A stretch of DNA of 18,814 nucleotides from a virus, in UHGV virus genome UHGV-2198042; one strand, 5' to 3'. The position numbers were made by a program, and so were the translations under genes. Position 1 is the first letter of the stretch. The number at the start of each line of letters is the position of its first letter. The notes under the pieces were generated by a model. The model worked only from the letters and a program-made list of their open reading frames with translations, made no database searches and had not been told where the DNA came from. Positions 2,852 to 16,340 of the stretch are shown here, piece after piece.

Positions 2852-4047
2852 GAGGTCACCGTGATACTGATATTCGCGGTGCTACAGGACGCTGAAGCAT
2901 CATAGGCAATATCAATGTTTGATGCCGATACGCTGCCAGACGACTTACCGATCAGCAGGTCGGTAATATCGTAATAGCGGGCATTCCCGCCGCTCACAAC
3001 GCCGAGGTTTGCCGGGGAATAAATACGGCTCAGCAGAACGTCGTCGCCAATTGTTAGGCCATTTATATAATCGGCAACAGCCTGTTTAATCTGCTCGCCG
3101 ATTTGAGAGGTATAGCCGGTAAAAACTTTCAGGGTAATGGCTACGAAAATTGGCACATCGGTAGAGCGCGAAAAACTGATGACGTGAGGATTACCATAAG
3201 TATCCGGCACTGTGACAGAAGTTTTACCGTAAGTTGCGGTTCCCTGCCCTTTATTCCCCCTGATGGTCTGGGCTATCTCGGTAACATCCCCTCCATCGAC
3301 GATGGCGGAAATAGAGTGTGGCGGCAGCCCGTTGCTGTCGGTTGCCCCAGTATCGTTCTTATATAGTTTGTGACGTGTCACGCCAGCAACATTAGCGATA
3401 GCACCGTCGACACCTTCAAACGGTGTGATCGATGGTAGCGCGACGCTTTGCCCCTGCCGAATGCGCAGCTCTGCGTCGGTTTCGGCTGGTGAACCGACAG
3501 TAGCCGCAACTGGATTGGTTACCGACACCCAACCTCGGGTCGGGGTGTTGATAGTGGTAATAGTCCCGGCCAGCGCCGCAACCGAACCGCTATTCGCACA
3601 TGTGGCCGTCACCAGCACAGTACCATCAACGCCGATCGCTACACTTGCGGGAAAATTCCAGATAATGCCGTTTTTATCCCGTGCGGAGCCATTCGTGATA
3701 GTCGTGCCTGCCGTACCGGTTAACAGAAGGTCAGCAGTAGAGTTTGTCGCTACTTTTCGCGTGATCCCGTTAATTTTCACATTGCTGCTAAGCGCTGCGG
3801 CCTGCGCTGTCGTCGGTGAAAAAGAGTTGTAGATCCCGATAGCGGTGTTGTTAGCGTCATGCACGGCAAGAGCCACCAGCGCGACCATCTGCCCGTCTTT
3901 GCTGTCTGGTTCGAGGTAGGCATCACTACCGTAAATCTGCCTGAAATAGCTGGTCAGTGTATCTAGGATTGTCTGGTAATCAGGCGCACTAATCCCCTGG
4001 GCGGTTACCGTTGCCGATAGCCCCAGCGTGTCGAGGTTCAAAGCCAT
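2848..4047 (-). CDS. baseplate J-like protein (P2 gpJ / Mu gp47-like)
   Basis: 399 aa; size, composition and synteny (after the gp25/W-like gene, before the gpI-like gene) fit baseplate J-family wedge proteins. Confidence 0.7.
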   Translation of the reverse strand: MALNLDTLGLSATVTAQGISAPDYQTILDTLTSYFRQIYGSDAYLEPDSKDGQMVALVALAVHDANNTAIGIYNSFSPTTAQAAALSSNVKINGITRKVATNSTADLLLTGTAGTTITNGSARDKNGIIWNFPASVAIGVDGTVLVTATCANSGSVAALAGTITTINTPTRGWVSVTNPVAATVGSPAETDAELRIRQGQSVALPSITPFEGVDGAIANVAGVTRHKLYKNDTGATDSNGLPPHSISAIVDGGDVTEIAQTIRGNKGQGTATYGKTSVTVPDTYGNPHVISFSRSTDVPIFVAITLKVFTGYTSQIGEQIKQAVADYINGLTIGDDVLLSRIYSPANLGVVSGGNARYYDITDLLIGKSSGSVSASNIDIAYDASASCSTANISITVTS

Positions 4048-4401
4048 TTATGCCTCGCTTGTTACAGTCGTCTGGCCGTAGATTGTGTCAATGGAGGAAG
4101 TGAAGGTGACGCGACGGCTGGTGCCGTCATAATTGGTATCGAAGGAAAGAATCGACAGAACGCCCGGTGTATCCTGTATGCGTTCGCGTATAGCCAGGAT
4201 GTAGACATCTGATCGCTGCTTCCCAAGCACTGACTGAACATACGGCGTGCCTTCCGTCAGATCGAGAAACCACTGACCGCGCCACAGCTCGAAACGGGTT
4301 TTTACGGCCTGGGCGACACATTCCGGACTGTCGATAAGGAAAGTATCGTCACCCTGGCCGAAAGTGTAATCGCCTTCAGTATCTTCGCGACGGTATCGCA
4401 T
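4048..4401 (-). CDS. small baseplate protein (gpW/gp25 or Mu gp46-like)
   Basis: 117 aa ORF tightly coupled between the spike and J-like genes. Confidence 0.5.
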   Translation of the reverse strand: MRYRREDTEGDYTFGQGDDTFLIDSPECVAQAVKTRFELWRGQWFLDLTEGTPYVQSVLGKQRSDVYILAIRERIQDTPGVLSILSFDTNYDGTSRRVTFTSSIDTIYGQTTVTSEA

Positions 4402-5141
4402 TATTGCGGCCCTCCGGTAGTTCCCCCGCCAGTCTGTACTCCGCCATGTTTATGCGTGGCGACACTGATACCAGAAGCTGTTACGTCATTCGTTACCGTC
4501 ACCGGCCCAAGCATCGTCGCAGTACCGCCGCTTTCGCCCATTCCCTGAGACAAGTTGCCATTAATCGTTACGTTGCCGTTCAGCGTGATAGTCGGGGATG
4601 TGATTGTCGTTCCACCTTCAGCCGTAGCTGTAAGCTGGCCCGGTGTTTTAATGGTGATGTTATGTCCTGCGGCGACTTCTACAAACGCCGCACCATCATC
4701 GGTTCGCAGCTGCGCGGCGCTGGTACTGATACCGCTGATTTTCCGTGCTTGCGACTGTGGGCCAACGATGGCGAACGCATCAGATAAGTCATGCTGGCGC
4801 GGGTCGACGGTCTCCTGCACGCCGCCGCTCTGCCACCAGAAATCGATGCAACGGTCGGCAAAGAGCAGCAGGCACTCGTCGCCTTCTTTAACCGGAAAAG
4901 TCAGCGTACAACCGCCGCCACGCGGGAAGATAACCGGCACATCCACCAGCGGTTTTAATTCGGTGGAGCCATCGCCAACGATACCGCGAAGCGCTACCTC
5001 TACCGTGCAGGTAACAGTGTCAGGATCGAACGACTGAATGATGCCGGGCATCGCTACGCGCATCTGGGTAGACACCGAATCGGCAATGGCCTGCGCGGTC
5101 TGCTGCTCACCGCCGATCTGTGATTGAGTTGGAATTGGCAT
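4401..5141 (-). CDS. baseplate spike/hub protein (P2 gpV / Mu gp45-like)
   Basis: 246 aa; N-terminal region ...PLVDVPVIFPRGGGCTLTFPVKEGDECLLLF resembles the gpV OB-fold; Gly/Thr-rich C-terminus; G-rich RBS before the ATG. Confidence 0.7.
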   Translation of the reverse strand: MPIPTQSQIGGEQQTAQAIADSVSTQMRVAMPGIIQSFDPDTVTCTVEVALRGIVGDGSTELKPLVDVPVIFPRGGGCTLTFPVKEGDECLLLFADRCIDFWWQSGGVQETVDPRQHDLSDAFAIVGPQSQARKISGISTSAAQLRTDDGAAFVEVAAGHNITIKTPGQLTATAEGGTTITSPTITLNGNVTINGNLSQGMGESGGTATMLGPVTVTNDVTASGISVATHKHGGVQTGGGTTGGPQ

Positions 5142-5152
5142 AAAACCCCCAT

Positions 5153-5180
5153 AAAAAAACCAGCCGAAGCTGGTTTGGTA
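5153..5180 (-). terminator. intrinsic terminator-like hairpin (minus strand) upstream of spike gene
   Basis: Minus strand reads aaaccagc-TTCG-gctggttt followed by ttttat; 8-bp perfect stem with a UUCG tetraloop and a U-run. Confidence 0.45.
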
Positions 5181-5242
5181 TCAATTATCTCTTAGTAACT
5201 AAGCTACATCAGTGTGAAGTAAGGCTTTTCCGCTGCAATGGC

Positions 5243-11509: not shown

Positions 11510-11566
11510 TAAAAAACATGCGTTGCGGTACGCATTTATTGCAAAAAGCCCCGCATCGCGAGGCTC
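11510..11566 (-). terminator. tandem intrinsic terminators downstream of Rz
   Basis: Minus strand: agcctcgc-gat-gcggggct + ttttt, then atgcgt-accgca-acgcat + gtttttt. Confidence 0.5.
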
Positions 11567-11596
11567 ATTAAATGGACTTTGTGATTTGCAAAAAAA

Positions 11597-12064
11597 TTAT
11601 TTCAGGCATTGCGTCCTGATGTATTCCTGCAGGTAGTTAACCTGCGCGGTTATCTTGTCGATTCCACTTCGTAGACGGTAATAATTGAGTTCAGCATCTG
11701 CTGTAAGTCTTGGGCTTTCTCCATCGCCCATGCTGCTGGCTCCGGTCGTTGACTTTGCACAGGTGGCGGCGACTTGCAGGCGCTTACGGCCAGCAATGAC
11801 ATCGCTATGCAGACGCTCAATGGTTTCTTTCGCATCAGCCAGTTCTCCGGTGTATTTGGCATCCAGTGCAGCGACATCACGCTGGCGGGTCTGCATGTCT
11901 TTAATGGTGGCGGTCGCCAGGAGGAGTTTCTCAGTGGCCTTATCGCGCTGGTCTCTGTAAGTGATGGCGTTGTCGCGGTAGTGGTTCACGAAGAAAGCCA
12001 GTGCGCCGATTAACGCCAGCACCAGCAACTGCAGCCAGTAACGCTTAACCAGTGCGCTAATCAT
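11597..12064 (-). CDS. Rz: i-spanin Rz
   Basis: 155 aa; N-terminal TM helix then ...[18 protein letters not shown]...[20 protein letters not shown] closely resembles lambda Rz; start overlaps R stop. Confidence 0.85.
11650..11835 (-). CDS. Rz1: o-spanin Rz1 (embedded in Rz, +1 frame)
   Basis: Internal start [20 protein letters not shown] with a lipobox (LAVSAC) and Pro-rich mature region, fully nested in Rz as in lambda. Confidence 0.7.
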
Positions 12065-12510
12065 GACAGGAACAGAGCTCGCTCTGCCTTGCGGCGATTC
12101 GTGAGCCCCGGCATCACCTTTCCGCCTGATTTATTCCAGCGCAGAAATTCATCTGCCGCGCCTTTTATATCGCCAGCATTCAGCTTTTTCAGCAGTGTAG
12201 ATGTGGAAAGAGCACGCGACCCAACGTTGTAAGCGAACGACACCAGTGCGTCGAACTGGCCTTGTGTCAGCTTCACCCTGACAACTTTCAGCACGTCATT
12301 CTCATAACCAACAAGCCCTGTTTTCAGAAGCCTGTCAGCGGTTTGCTGGTCGATAGTCATACCGCGCTTTACTGGCTTTCCGTCAACCGGATGGGTCCAG
12401 CCATAGCCGATGGTCCACGGCGCATCTCCCGTTCCGGGGTCGGGGTAAGCAGTCAGCCGACAACCTTCAAATTTTTTTATCAGAGCAATTCCGTCAGGAC
12501 TGGTTTGCAT
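12061..12510 (-). CDS. R: endolysin, T4/P22-type lysozyme (GH24)
   Basis: From internal Met [16 protein letters not shown]... about 149 aa; ...[14 protein letters not shown]...[11 protein letters not shown] matches the P22 gp19-type lysozyme from memory; the ORF-track N-terminal extension overlaps the holin gene. Confidence 0.85.
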
Positions 12511-12817
12511 CGTCAACTCCCGCCTTTTTTGCTGCAAGTTTTTTAATAAGATTGCCGATCGAATCGGTGCCGATGTATCCAATAAAGACGCTGGCTATGT
12601 AGGCGAGGTTGCTGCTCAGGCCGATAAAGTCCAGAAGGTCACGAACGAACCAGGCAATCATCGCGCACATCAGCGCATCAATTAGCGTTTTTGTTACCGC
12701 GCCGCCGTTATAGCGACCACGCAGATACGCCATGATAAAAGCCAGCATTGCACCAATACCCTGCTCCTTGGCGGCAAGTAGCGCAGCGATGAAATCTTGT
12801 TTGTATGGCATTTTCAT
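12494..12817 (-). CDS. S: class I holin, lambda S-like (dual-start MKM)
   Basis: [39 protein letters not shown]... is near-identical in pattern to lambda S; GGAGG RBS; the ORF-track upstream start (12826) is probably not used. Confidence 0.85.
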
Positions 12818-13025
12818 AGGCCTCACCTCCGATTTTCCGGATGGTGCTGTGTGTGTGTTTGAAAAGGGTCAGGCTTCACGGGCTGGATTTATCAACAAAG
12901 CACGTAGCGGATGATTCCCGTGAGCCTGAAATTGATGAATATGTCTGAAATAACTAGACCATTAGTAAAACAACTCGATAAATGTGGTTAAATGAGACTA
13001 CGTTCTCACAACTTAATTAGTACCA

Positions 13026-13196
13026 ATGATTATCAAGCCCTGCCCCTACTGCGGAAAGTTAATTAACCCAGAATCACTTGTGTGTAGCCACTGCCGGATA
13101 GTGAATCCTTTTGTGAAGGCCAGCAGAAGAGAAAAAGCGAAGAATGTATTAGTAATCGCTCTCGTTGCTGCTTTTTTAATTTGGATGATTCTCTGA
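13026..13196 (+). CDS. small zinc-ribbon protein with C-terminal TM helix
   Basis: 56 aa below the ORF-track cutoff: MIIKPCPYCGKLINPESLVCSHCRIVNPFVKASRREKAKNVLVIALVAAFLIWMIL; CxxC...CxxC plus hydrophobic tail; no strong SD. Confidence 0.4.
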   Translation: MIIKPCPYCGKLINPESLVCSHCRIVNPFVKASRREKAKNVLVIALVAAFLIWMIL

Positions 13197-13633
13197 GTTG
13201 CCAGTTTTCAATGAAGATAATGCGGGCAAAAAAAGCCTGCTCGGACGAACAGGCATGAAAAATAACAATACCGTCAAGGAGGTGGCGCCGGGTGCCTCCC
13301 GGTGGAACAGCCCCAGCCGACTAGTTCCGCGCAAACAAACCTGGACAAAAAAGTTTGACTGGACGCCCCGCCGCATAGGGGGATTCACCACGAACCAAAA
13401 GATAAAATCATCCGGTGACCGGGGCAATATCTAACCGGAACTTTTCAGAATCACTTATTGTTTCCTGGAGAGTACATGAGCGTTGGTGAATTCACGTGAT
13501 GCTTTTGGATGAGCGCTGAACCCAAAGGTCAGTATTTTCACACAGCAATTTTGCAAAAAGCAGCGCCCATTCAAAACCAGGTCGCTTTCCAGTCACTCCG
13601 GGGAACCCATCATCGCAGACTGGAAAGCTTTTA

Positions 13634-13662
13634 CTGGAGCGGGCAAAGGAATCGAACCTCTG
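13634..13662 (-). tRNA. tRNA-like 3' fragment (T-arm plus acceptor-3', tRNA-Gly-like)
   Basis: Minus strand reads ...agaggTTCGATTcctttgcccgctCCA, resembling the 3' end of E. coli tRNA-Gly; no complementary 5' acceptor strand found upstream, so likely a relic. Confidence 0.3.
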
Positions 13663-13671
13663 ACGCGCAGC

Positions 13672-13926
13672 TTATTTCCAGCTTTCGCCATTTAAGGCTG
13701 AAAGCACTGTTTGATGTGTTACACCAAACATTCTCCCTAGCCCTCTGGCTCCATAAACCTTATGTCGTGGAATGTAGTTTTCTCTGATGAACTGGACGCT
13801 GTCCATTGTTAGCTTGCTCATACCATTCAGCTCACCAGCTACTAAGTAGCTAAGGTCAAATTTGGTTTTCTGAATGTGGCATGCAGAACATAGTAGTTGG
13901 CACTTTTCAACCTCAGCATAAAACAC
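13672..13926 (-). pseudogene. HNH endonuclease C-terminal fragment with HTH
   Basis: 84 aa starting at GTG directly after an in-frame TAG; contains CQLLCSACH (zinc-binding half of an HNH motif) and an HTH-like segment, but lacks the N-terminal catalytic part. Confidence 0.4.
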
Positions 13927-14133
13927 CTAATCTGAGTGATAGTGCATCTCGCTTACATTTGCTGATTTGGTGGAAGGGTCTATGTGGTCAAACTGAAGCG
14001 AATATTCGGATCCGCAACTCGCGCAACGACCACCCAACTTTTCCACGGTCTTAGCAAGCCTAGCCCTTCGATTAAGATAGTAATCTTTGCTCGGCATTTA
14101 CCACCTCTACCATTGGAGCTAAACCAGCATGTT

Positions 14134-14208
14134 TGGCGGGATAGCGTGGACTCGAACCACGATAAGAAGGTTAACAGCCTTCCGTAATGACCTTTATACG
14201 ACTGACCC
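14134..14208 (-). tRNA. tRNA-like element, anticodon GUU (Asn-like), probably degenerate
   Basis: 75 nt on minus strand: acceptor gggtcag, D-arm with A14 and GG, anticodon stem gaagg/ccttc with loop cuGUUaa, T-arm cgtgg-TTCGAGT-ccacg, 3' ctatccc-g-CCA; acceptor stem has 2 central mismatches. Confidence 0.35.
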
Positions 14209-14298
14209 AAATAAAAAAGCCACCGTTGCAACTTAAGAGTCACTAACGGCAGCTTATGCGAATAGTGTTGCTCATTTGCTCAATGATGTCAACACGTT

Positions 14299-14787
14299 CT
14301 ATGCTACATGTTTAATTTTCTCTACACGTTTCCGGTTTTTAAACGCACTATCCAGAACCGGGTAAATCATAAACAACGAGGCATTGAGGATTTCGTCAAC
14401 TTCCCGACGACAGGTTGCGAGCGATGGTTTTTGAATGCGCCCTCCGCCCCGGCATAACATCTTGCGAGGTCTTGCGACGCGATGATAGTAAGATGCAATG
14501 GCGTGCTTGGAAGATCCATGGGCGTAGTAGCTGAGGAGGATGCCAAAGGCTTTCTTGTCAATGTACATGACGGAATCGACGACCTGAGAAATCAACATTC
14601 CATCATCATCATTGCACATTGGCCTTGTCATAACTCTTCCCGGCTCTACGCTCTCCATGAACTTCGCTATTACGCTGCTCATGCGCTTTTCAAGACGACC
14701 TGAATAAACCCATGCCCCCCACAGTTCAAGCCAGCCATTCAGCCACTCGTGCTGCTCTTTGGTGAGGTTTAGTTCTCTTATGCCCAT
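14299..14787 (-). CDS. Q: late-gene antiterminator Q (non-lambda Q family)
   Basis: 162 aa ORF immediately downstream of ninH and upstream of the lysis cassette; several Cys/His; no similarity to lambda Q itself but the size fits small Q proteins (phage 21 type, from memory). Confidence 0.6.
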   Translation of the reverse strand: MGIRELNLTKEQHEWLNGWLELWGAWVYSGRLEKRMSSVIAKFMESVEPGRVMTRPMCNDDDGMLISQVVDSVMYIDKKAFGILLSYYAHGSSKHAIASYYHRVARPRKMLCRGGGRIQKPSLATCRREVDEILNASLFMIYPVLDSAFKNRKRVEKIKHVA

Positions 14788-14972
14788 CGTCTTCCCCTCT
14801 TGCCCTGTTTGACCATCAGGACGCCGTTAACTATTACGTGACGCTCGCCTTTGCTGTCTCGGTTGTACTTAAGCACTGTTCCTCTTGCGCAGGAAAGCAT
14901 CCTTGCCACTTCGGTCTGATTGCCTCGTGTCTGGATAAGAAGCTCTGGTATCGTTTGAATTGTGGCGTTCAT
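14778..14972 (-). CDS. ninH: NinH
   Basis: 64 aa; ...TIPELLIQTRGNQTEVARMLSCARGTVLKYNRD...HVIVNGVLMV closely matches lambda NinH as I recall it. Confidence 0.8.
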   Translation of the reverse strand: MNATIQTIPELLIQTRGNQTEVARMLSCARGTVLKYNRDSKGERHVIVNGVLMVKQGKRGRRWA

Positions 14973-15331
14973 ACGTTCTCCAGTTCGGTGATTTTTATTC
15001 CAAGCCGTCCGCCTGGTACTTTCACGCCACGAATTACGCGAATGTCATCGAATTGCTCGTCGTCTTCCGCAAATCCGGCGTGGATAAGGGAGTCGAGTAA
15101 ACCTTTCAGGATGTTGTCGAGGTCGCGGCGGCGGGAGTCTGGAACGTCTGCGATGACTTTGATGCGGAGTCGTGATTTGGTGAAAATGTCTAACTTAAGT
15201 TGGCGGATGATTTGCTGAACGTCTTTTCGGTATTTCTGGCCTTTATCGCTGATGTAGTATTGGCTTCCCCGTCTTCGCCAGTAGGTATTCACCGACGGCG
15301 GGTATGGAAGCACAAACTGATATTCGTTCAT
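14969..15331 (-). CDS. rusA: Holliday junction resolvase RusA
   Basis: 120 aa; LPYPPSVNTYWRRRG... and catalytic-region motif RRRDLDN match the RusA family. Confidence 0.85.
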   Translation of the reverse strand: MNEYQFVLPYPPSVNTYWRRRGSQYYISDKGQKYRKDVQQIIRQLKLDIFTKSRLRIKVIADVPDSRRRDLDNILKGLLDSLIHAGFAEDDEQFDDIRVIRGVKVPGGRLGIKITELENV

Positions 15332-15618
15332 GACTTAATCTTCCCCTCCTTCAGCAGTATCGCCTGCGTCCTGATCACGCCTTCGAGGTGGTAAAGCCTG
15401 GCGTCTTTGTTGTCGAGATTATGGGTGCGTCGGTCGATTTCATCGTGACACGCGCTACAAGCCCATGCGCCGATCAGGTCGTCAGGCTTCATTCCCGTTC
15501 CGCAAATTCCAGCCATCCGGTAATGTGCCAGAACTGTAGTTTCAGGGTTGCCATTGCATACGCCGTAAATACGTACCTGGCATTCTCTGCCGCGCGCTTC
15601 TTTGCGTAGGTTAGCCAT
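15328..15618 (-). CDS. YbcO-like DUF1364 protein (nin region)
   Basis: 96 aa; RKEARGRECQVRIYGVCNGNPETTVLAHYR...ACSACHDEIDRRTH resembles E. coli DLP12 YbcO from memory; start overlaps rusA. Confidence 0.65.
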   Translation of the reverse strand: MANLRKEARGRECQVRIYGVCNGNPETTVLAHYRMAGICGTGMKPDDLIGAWACSACHDEIDRRTHNLDNKDARLYHLEGVIRTQAILLKEGKIKS

Positions 15619-16340
15619 TAAGCAGCCTCTCCTGTTACTTTCAGCATTCCGTTATCGAGCAACTTTCTGGTCAGCCACTGTTGACCGCGCCCGGTGATTT
15701 TTGTGGTGAACGATATCTGTATTCCGTGATTTGTATTGACCGCTGTTTCTTTCACTGTGAAATAGCCGCGATCCATATATTCCTGCATTGGCACATTGCG
15801 CCGGGAACCTGAAGCAATAAGGATTTTGTGATCGCGCATCCACGCAAACAGTTTGTTTGGACCAATACCGACAACCTTTGCAAAGTTTCCAATCAAAATT
15901 CCGCTGGCCTCGCCAACGCGATCGGCAAACTCAACTTTAGGTGCGGCAATTGCGAGCTGGTTTTCCAGTTGCATTTTCTGCTCAGCAAGATCAGCAGCAA
16001 GGCGCAACGCTTCTGGTAGCGTTTTGGGGATATTAACCGCAGCTTCTTCAAGCTCTCGCCAGCGGTCAACAAGGCGAGCGGTGAATTCCGGCGACAACTG
16101 GGCAACAACGACAATACTGTCTCGCTTACCTTGTTCGCCTTCGAAGACGTAATGCTCGTACTGAACATTGAACCCTAAGTTATTGATTCTTTCGGAAACC
16201 TCAATTTGAGGAAGCCGGATAACACCATTTTTAGCCAGCGTTTCGATGGTACGTTTCACATTGTCATGACGCTTACCAACCAACTCAGCGATTTCAATGC
16301 TTGTCATTTTGATGGCATTGCCATTTATTAACTCATTCAT
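15618..16340 (-). CDS. Rha-family regulatory protein / antirepressor with KilAC C-terminal domain
   Basis: 240 aa; N-terminal MTSIEIAELVGKRHDNVKRTIETL (Rha-like), C-terminal ...FAKVVGIGPNKLFAWMRDHKIL...TTKITGRGQQWL (KilAC-like). Confidence 0.7.
   Translation of the reverse strand: MNELINGNAIKMTSIEIAELVGKRHDNVKRTIETLAKNGVIRLPQIEVSERINNLGFNVQYEHYVFEGEQGKRDSIVVVAQLSPEFTARLVDRWRELEEAAVNIPKTLPEALRLAADLAEQKMQLENQLAIAAPKVEFADRVGEASGILIGNFAKVVGIGPNKLFAWMRDHKILIASGSRRNVPMQEYMDRGYFTVKETAVNTNHGIQISFTTKITGRGQQWLTRKLLDNGMLKVTGEAA

Follow-up and report, generated by a model that had tools for sequence, protein, structure and literature searches.

A small antisense gene between Q and the holin of a lambdoid prophage, predicted to encode a tail-anchored zinc-ribbon protein

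The short open reading frame (ORF) at positions 13026..13196 of the virus genome UHGV-2198042, analyzed here over a single stretch of 18,814 nucleotides (the window), is almost certainly a real protein-coding gene, as judged from its conservation and substitution pattern across prophages of three bacterial genera. The explanation that we favor, with somewhat better than even confidence and on the strength of sequence analysis, is that of an accessory gene with a promoter of its own, coding for a tail-anchored zinc-ribbon membrane protein that would be expressed in the lysogen. An ORF of fewer than 60 codons, skipped by standard annotation in every complete E. coli genome that carries it, can in this way be recognized as a protein-coding gene under selection. 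It is an ordinary moron, a phage cargo gene with a distant likeness to DUF2116, and not a new type of system; the value of the finding lies in a corrected annotation and in a pointer to an uncharacterized family of small proteins, and no new mechanism is claimed.

Coding evidence for the antisense reading frame

The elements of the locus to which we refer throughout are the following.

11597..12064, - strand: Rz
12061..12582, - strand: lysozyme
12494..12817, - strand: lambda-family holin, divergent from the ORF (PF05106, 103.5 bits)
12968..14002, no strand assigned: 1035-bp segment without a counterpart in a close relative (E. coli C 236-04A, locus L051), comprising the candidate promoter, the ORF, the STnc100 element and most of the probable HNH-like pseudogene
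12985..12993, + strand: extended -10-like motif TGGTTAAAT (TGgTTAAAT), 32 nt upstream of the ATG
13026..13196, + strand: mini-protein gene for a zinc ribbon plus predicted tail anchor, ATG to TGA (stop included), 56 codons
13224..13416, - strand: sRNA element of the STnc100 family, in convergent orientation to the ORF (Rfam RF02076; 71.7 bits, with a gathering threshold of 47; E=7e-14)
13235..13254, - strand: intrinsic terminator hairpin, GCCTGTTCGTCCGAGCAGGC followed by TTTTTTT, which ends the STnc100 element and lies 38 nt past the ORF stop
13672..14097, - strand: HNH-endonuclease-like frame (DHIDP ... CSACH), situated just past tRNA-Asn and broken by one in-frame TAG (13927-13929)
14134..14208, - strand: tRNA-Asn
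14299..14787, - strand: late antiterminator Q (PF06530 Phage_antitermQ, 87.4 bits)

The original prediction described a 56-codon ORF with two CxxC pairs followed by a hydrophobic helix, lying antisense between Q and the holin. Both parts of this description are confirmed: the ORF is found on the + strand at the position given above, and Q, the holin and the late genes all lie on the - strand. Its length carries little weight, because 85 ORFs in the window start with ATG and reach 40 aa or more, and a frame of 56 codons is therefore not above chance by itself. Its composition is rarer. It is the sole member of those 85 with a C..C-x(6-20)-C..C pattern, ORFs with this pattern arose at a rate of 0.045 per window in 200 base-shuffled windows, and none of the 200 contained the pattern together with a hydrophobic segment.

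Thirty copies of the ORF in fetched loci, representing 10 nucleotide variants, were compared together with the copy of E. coli NCTC9040, giving 31 copies from complete E. coli genomes, IMG/VR prophage contigs, Citrobacter freundii, C. meridianamericanus and Salmonella Veneziana. The frame is intact in all 31, spanning E. coli, Citrobacter and Salmonella prophages, and the NCTC9040 copy carries one change, which is synonymous. None of the other five frames is open across all variants, and most variants have stops in them. Variable alignment columns are distributed 19/19/43 over codon positions 1/2/3, and dN/dS within the E. coli/Salmonella clade is 0.15-0.26 (Nei-Gojobori). The window differs from the Salmonella copy by 14 synonymous and 11 non-synonymous changes over 36.8 and 131.2 sites, respectively (binomial p = 2e-4). 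Between the E. coli/Salmonella clade and the Citrobacter clade dS is saturated, with a dN of 0.32 and a protein identity of 54-57%, and what has been kept between both clades is the cysteines, the VNPFVKA motif, the basic stretch and the hydrophobic tail.

The possibility that the ORF is simply spurious had been raised from the outset, beside those of a regulator or a toxin, with conservation and dN/dS in related prophages proposed as the way to check it, and the intact frame in every copy found together with purifying selection refutes it. A spurious frame would mean that the DNA is conserved merely as part of a late leader or sRNA region that lies between Q and the holin and codes for no protein, and the short frame, the lack of a Shine-Dalgarno sequence, the absence of a PGAP annotation in 10 of 10 complete E. 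coli genomes carrying the ORF and its location in a conserved mosaic module, which it shares with an sRNA element and a structured holin leader, could all be read that way. We consider this extremely improbable, as the excess of third-position variation and the low dN/dS are those of a coding sequence, the protein is kept between clades at saturated dS, and this frame is open in every copy while the other five are stopped in most variants. In addition, the Salmonella locus conserves the ORF alone, homologs of ~60 aa occur outside prophages, and the RNA has no special structure. An explanation of the conservation by a structured RNA was dropped for this last reason, since folding of the + strand across the ORF is not unusual (z = -0.28).

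Accessory distribution, neighbors and expression signals

The ORF is rare, being carried by 10 of 5426 complete E. coli genomes and by none of the isolated, sequenced phages in a collection of 50,697 records. In most loci homology to the window starts exactly at 12814, the ribosome-binding site of the holin, and ends at variable positions on the right; the module that begins there is combined with differing Q genes and with holins that belong to at least three Pfam families. In two Salmonella loci (L005/L030) the homology is limited to window positions 13017-13216, which is the ORF with 9-20 nt on each side, and the ORF adjoins Q while STnc100 lies elsewhere. The closest comparison is with E. 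coli C 236-04A, which matches the window at 11543-12967 with 99.7% and at 14003-15619 with 97.7% identity, the two blocks abutting. Of the HNH-like frame, that strain retains only the initial ~95 nt, which run straight into the holin leader, and this arrangement suggests that the 1035-bp difference is a deletion there rather than an insertion in the window. As this close relative does without the segment that bears the ORF, the gene is accessory and behaves like a moron, and the earlier view that it is not part of the canonical late region was right. The GC content is 42.1% for the ORF and 39.5% for candidate promoter plus ORF, compared with 49.9% for the window. Judged by its sequence distribution, then, the ORF is an accessory moron gene that some lambdoid prophages of E. 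coli, Citrobacter and Salmonella carry between Q and the holin.

Free reshuffling in this interval is illustrated by E. coli MS 115-1 (L001), where an identical ORF module occurs with another Q gene, tRNA genes for Gly, Thr and Ile, and a + strand hypothetical gene of 316 aa, the features lying at 3806-4114 and 4240-5190 of that locus. The ORF is likewise identical in E. coli KL53 and FAM21845.

Downstream of the ORF, the STnc100 element is also adjacent in three other loci (L002, L004, L028). In Salmonella locus L005 it is on the side of the ORF toward the holin, which reverses the order along the late operon, and it is absent from the Citrobacter clade. STnc100 was considered as the pR' late-leader RNA and the idea was dropped, given its variable order relative to the ORF and its position in Stx2 phages, where it is found downstream of stxB (PMC12370729). 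The HNH-like frame beyond it is probably a pseudogene and has no Pfam match at E <= 0.001. In the Citrobacter-type prophages the surroundings differ: in locus L031 the ORF homolog (3543-3713, +) is followed by a ynfU homolog on the same strand, a cspA-like cold-shock gene with a thermoregulator leader is close by (4120-4499, -), and an isrI sRNA match is located near the holin (2497-2593, -).

On the other side of the ORF, the holin start at 12817 is also the one that PGAP chose in the identical copy of MS 115-1, although the ORF list gives an upstream GTG at 12826. The holin begins with Met-Lys-Met (12809-12817, -), as in the dual-start (holin/antiholin) motif of lambda S. Its leader of ~100 nt (12830-12940, -) is conserved in phages HK225, mEp237, Louie and Chris1, is found also in prophages with different holin families, and folds as a long stem-loop (CAGGCUCACGGG...CCCGUGAAGCCUG, z = -2.47). 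Between the stem-loop and the holin ribosome-binding site is a (GT)5 run (12849-12858, +). Such runs are expected 0.03 times per window and the relatives carry shorter ones; the tract could be prone to slippage.

A candidate expression signal of the ORF itself is the extended -10-like motif, which is found exactly 32 nt before the ATG in eight of the eight contexts compared. Its consensus is TGg + T[T/A][A/T]AAT, with TGgTAAAAT in two Citrobacter loci and TGgTAAAGT in a third (L032). The Salmonella motif, TGgTTTAAT, keeps the same spacing though the upstream DNA is otherwise unrelated. A simple consensus scan called no sigma-70 promoter upstream of the ORF, and no variant has a Shine-Dalgarno sequence before the ATG. 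Translation from a leaderless mRNA was rejected, as the hexamer immediately before the ATG differs between variants. At the 3' end, the hairpin at 13235..13254 can serve as a terminator for the - strand only, there being no T-run after it on the + strand; in the Salmonella locus the 3' end of the ORF also faces a - strand hairpin with a T-run, just downstream of Q. The candidate promoter at 12985-12993 probably drives the ORF, and we regard it as fairly likely that the gene is a self-transcribed moron.

Protein architecture and wider family

The encoded protein, MIIKPCPYCGKLINPESLVCSHCRIVNPFVKASRREKAKNVLVIALVAAFLIWMIL, contains two cysteine pairs, C6-x2-C9 and C20-x2-C23, in an overall CxxC-x10-CxxC arrangement, followed by a basic stretch (K31-K39) and a hydrophobic C-terminus of 16 residues. 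Residues 28-41 have a net charge of +4, and hydrophobicity peaks over residues 41-55 of 56 (Kyte-Doolittle 15-residue mean of 3.11). Three parts can be distinguished.

13041..13094, + strand: C4 zinc ribbon (CPYC ... CSHC), codons 6-23, predicted from Pfam, invariant cysteines and AlphaFold2
13104..13142, + strand: N-P-F motif plus basic juxtamembrane helix (VKASRREKAK), codons 27-39, predicted from conserved P28/F29, charge and AlphaFold2
13146..13193, + strand: hydrophobic C-terminal segment, a predicted membrane tail anchor, codons 41-56, from Kyte-Doolittle values and AlphaFold2

The best profile match is to Pfam DUF2116 (PF09889), with residues 6-56 aligned to positions 6-56 of 59 at E=2.5e-5 and 24.6 bits, short of the gathering threshold of 26.8. 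Nine of 13 family members match this profile at E <= 0.01, the best E-value being 1.6e-5. The protein is therefore not a certified member of DUF2116 and is probably a distant relative. Two generic zinc-ribbon profiles also match below their cut-offs, Zn_ribbon_3 (PF13248; E=3.7e-5, 23.5 bits, cut-off 27) and Zn_Ribbon_1 (PF13240; E=0.002, 18.3 bits, cut-off 25), and the relatives P0003, P0005 and P0007 have precomputed PF13248 matches. AlphaFold2, run on an alignment of eight sequences, gave a model with short strands in residues 4-26 and a single helix over residues 28-55 (pLDDT 79.7). The Pfam zinc-ribbon matches and this model together support a zinc ribbon joined to a hydrophobic helix.

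A profile search of 1.84 billion representative proteins returned a thin family of ~60-aa relatives with the same layout (P0010, P0012, P0013, P0015, P0033 and others), along with many unrelated multi-ribbon proteins that match in the ribbon only. C6, C9, C20, C23, P28 and F29 are invariant in the 13 family members, and all members have a hydrophobic segment equivalent to residues 41-55. In the clade of the window this tail measures 16 residues, which is short for a membrane span. The features expected of a tail anchor are present at the sequence level: a C-terminal hydrophobic helix, positive charges on its N-terminal side and no signal peptide. Taken together, a zinc-ribbon and tail-anchor architecture is highly likely.

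The distant relatives live in unrelated accessory contexts, next to transposases, next to SocA_Panacea or BrnT/BrnA toxin-antitoxin genes, or in a conjugative T4SS region, and share no neighbor gene across these contexts. Other searches offered little guidance to function. Foldseek against PDB and BFVD gave generic zinc ribbons (RanBP2/NZF type) and uncharacterized phage mini-proteins, all at E > 0.04, and a sequence-profile search of PDB returned nothing meaningful. Among the PADLOC-DB v2 defense models there was nothing significant, the best being a homing-endonuclease zinc finger over 22 residues (E=9e-4). PHROG matches are all of unknown function and NCBIfam matches are insignificant. A scan of genome contigs found just unrelated zinc-ribbon segments in distant phyla, and nothing relevant was found in the literature on similar small zinc-ribbon membrane proteins of prophages. 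Klebsiella phage proteins labeled "zinc ribbon" or "membrane protein", returned by tblastn, were set aside; they are ~145 aa long, adjoin tape-measure genes and share the ribbon alone. The ~60-residue family has no studied member, so that a phenotype for one of them would annotate the whole group.

Candidate roles and comparison with known systems

In the mechanism that we propose, transcription of the ORF would begin at an extended -10 promoter of its own and run opposite to that of the late operon. In lysogens, the terminator at 13235-13254 would halt - strand transcripts from upstream ahead of the ORF, and during late lytic growth Q-modified polymerase would read antisense across it. The product would begin with a cytoplasmic four-cysteine zinc ribbon, continue with the conserved Asn/Asp-Pro-Phe motif and a basic helix, and end in a hydrophobic helix. 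This last helix would hold it in the inner membrane, its N-terminus facing the cytoplasm. We infer that the promoter is active, that the lysogen expresses the gene, and that the protein binds zinc and inserts into the membrane in this topology. The product most likely acts alone, because no partner gene is conserved next to it, and it may bind a cytoplasmic protein or a nucleic acid at the membrane face; such binding would make it a factor of the lysogenic-conversion or superinfection-exclusion type, not part of the lysis machinery. A role in exclusion or host modulation is a guess on our part. The functional part of the proposal draws only on architecture and position, since the defense, PDB and viral fold searches were uninformative, and we put forward just tentatively that this is a lysogen-expressed membrane factor acting on incoming phages or on the host envelope or a cytoplasmic partner. 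A bolder version seems to us doubtful: a lysogeny-specific switch in which the protein would be made while the - strand terminator shields the ORF, would be turned off by antisense late transcription as soon as Q acts, and would from the membrane block the entry of superinfecting DNA or restrain the holin and lysis. If it were true, exclusion or anti-lysis factors that depend on zinc and sit in the membrane by a tail anchor would form a new class, common to the ~60-aa relatives on other mobile elements.

Several features of the ORF recall type I toxins such as Hok, TisB and Ldr, which are membrane-active peptides of less than 60 aa whose genes lie on accessory DNA, have weak signals for translation and are overlapped by antisense transcripts. 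The ORF product could likewise be a small membrane toxin or an abortive-infection effector, held down by poor translation signals and late antisense transcription: it is small and hydrophobic, its gene has no Shine-Dalgarno sequence, the geometry of the locus makes the late transcript fully complementary to the ORF mRNA, and two distant homologs sit beside toxin-antitoxin genes (SocA_Panacea and BrnT/BrnA). These neighboring genes, however, already form complete pairs, and the ORF protein has a predicted zinc-binding domain, whereas type I toxins are not known to have a folded one. The invariant four cysteines and Pro-Phe argue for a binding module rather than a bare pore-forming helix. Type I toxins have dedicated antisense sRNAs, yet none is conserved with the ORF and the position of STnc100 differs between loci; PADLOC gave no significant match either. 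On balance, a toxin is an unlikely reading.

Comparably unlikely is a membrane-tethered antagonist that would sequester a cytoplasmic transcription factor, in the manner of zinc-binding anti-sigma factors or the small membrane inhibitors of LytTR regulators. Sequestering proteins of this kind connect a zinc ribbon in the cytoplasm directly to a membrane anchor, and the layout of the ORF protein resembles them, although this is a resemblance only. A further pointer is the database label. NCBI names two homologs of the ORF "DUF2116 family Zn-ribbon domain-containing protein", and DanI of uropathogenic E. coli UTI89, a protein of 69 aa annotated as DUF2116, inhibits the LytTR regulator DanR (bioRxiv 10.1101/2025.06.10.658900). 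DanI is the only studied E. coli protein with this label, and is similarly a small four-cysteine protein encoded on a mobile island with a promoter of its own. It differs, however, in being soluble and TraR/DksA-like, in lacking a hydrophobic tail and in being paired with a regulator gene, whereas no regulator gene is conserved beside the ORF in any context. No homology was detected between the two (BLASTP E=0.43; hhalign probability 4.7%).

A third alternative places the function in transcription or RNA, with convergent transcription insulating the lysis genes from leaky read-through or modulating STnc100, and the peptide being secondary. The promoter-like motif does oppose the late operon, from a position close upstream of the leader of the holin, and read-through from the ORF would be antisense to STnc100, as no + strand terminator precedes that element. 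We think this distinctly improbable given the purifying selection on the protein sequence, the reversed order of ORF and STnc100 in Salmonella, the absence of STnc100 from the Citrobacter clade, and the occurrence of distant homologs outside phage late regions.

Returning to the preferred reading of an accessory gene for a tail-anchored zinc-ribbon protein, the protein family most similar in layout is DUF2116, which has the same size and the same succession of zinc ribbon, basic region and hydrophobic end. Its members are archaeal Zn-ribbon proteins of ~60 aa ("probable treble clef"), whereas the ORF is found in bacterial prophages; DUF2116 has no known function, and membership would therefore explain nothing.

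As a gene, the ORF compares best with the morons of lambdoid phages, extra and independently transcribed genes such as bor, lom and stxAB. It is present or absent among close relatives, its GC content is below that of its surroundings, it is flanked by a promoter-like element upstream and a terminator hairpin downstream, and it occupies the Q-to-S interval, where cargo genes recur. Unlike stxAB, it is oriented against the late operon.

A counterpart by position is YnfU of the E. coli Qin prophage, a protein of 56 aa with two CPxC zinc knuckles whose expression was shown by tagging and for which no transmembrane helix was reported (Weaver et al., bioRxiv 10.1101/511675). The two proteins have the same length and two CxxC pairs each, and ynfU occupies the same antisense slot in the same orientation, with Q (ydfT) on one side and, ~200 nt away, the start of the holin on the other. 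They are nevertheless distinct. BLASTP aligned only 8-9 residues around the CxxC motifs (E=0.012-0.034 in a single comparison), and the identification of the ORF as YnfU was rejected; YnfU has no hydrophobic segment (Kyte-Doolittle maximum of 0.61), and ynfU, unlike the ORF, has a good Shine-Dalgarno sequence. The Citrobacter clade carries a ynfU homolog directly downstream of the ORF homolog on the same strand. Phage HK225 has yet another gene in this antisense slot, HK225_067 (L050 1740-2150, +), which encodes a hypothetical protein of 136 aa and lies between the annotated late terminator and the holin. The slot is thus less unusual than the original prediction implied. The shared location of ynfU and HK225_067 makes it a recurrent cargo site and suggests that it is a recurrent home of small-protein cargo expressed in the lysogen, for which the ORF described here would supply, after YnfU, a second and unrelated small zinc-binding protein.
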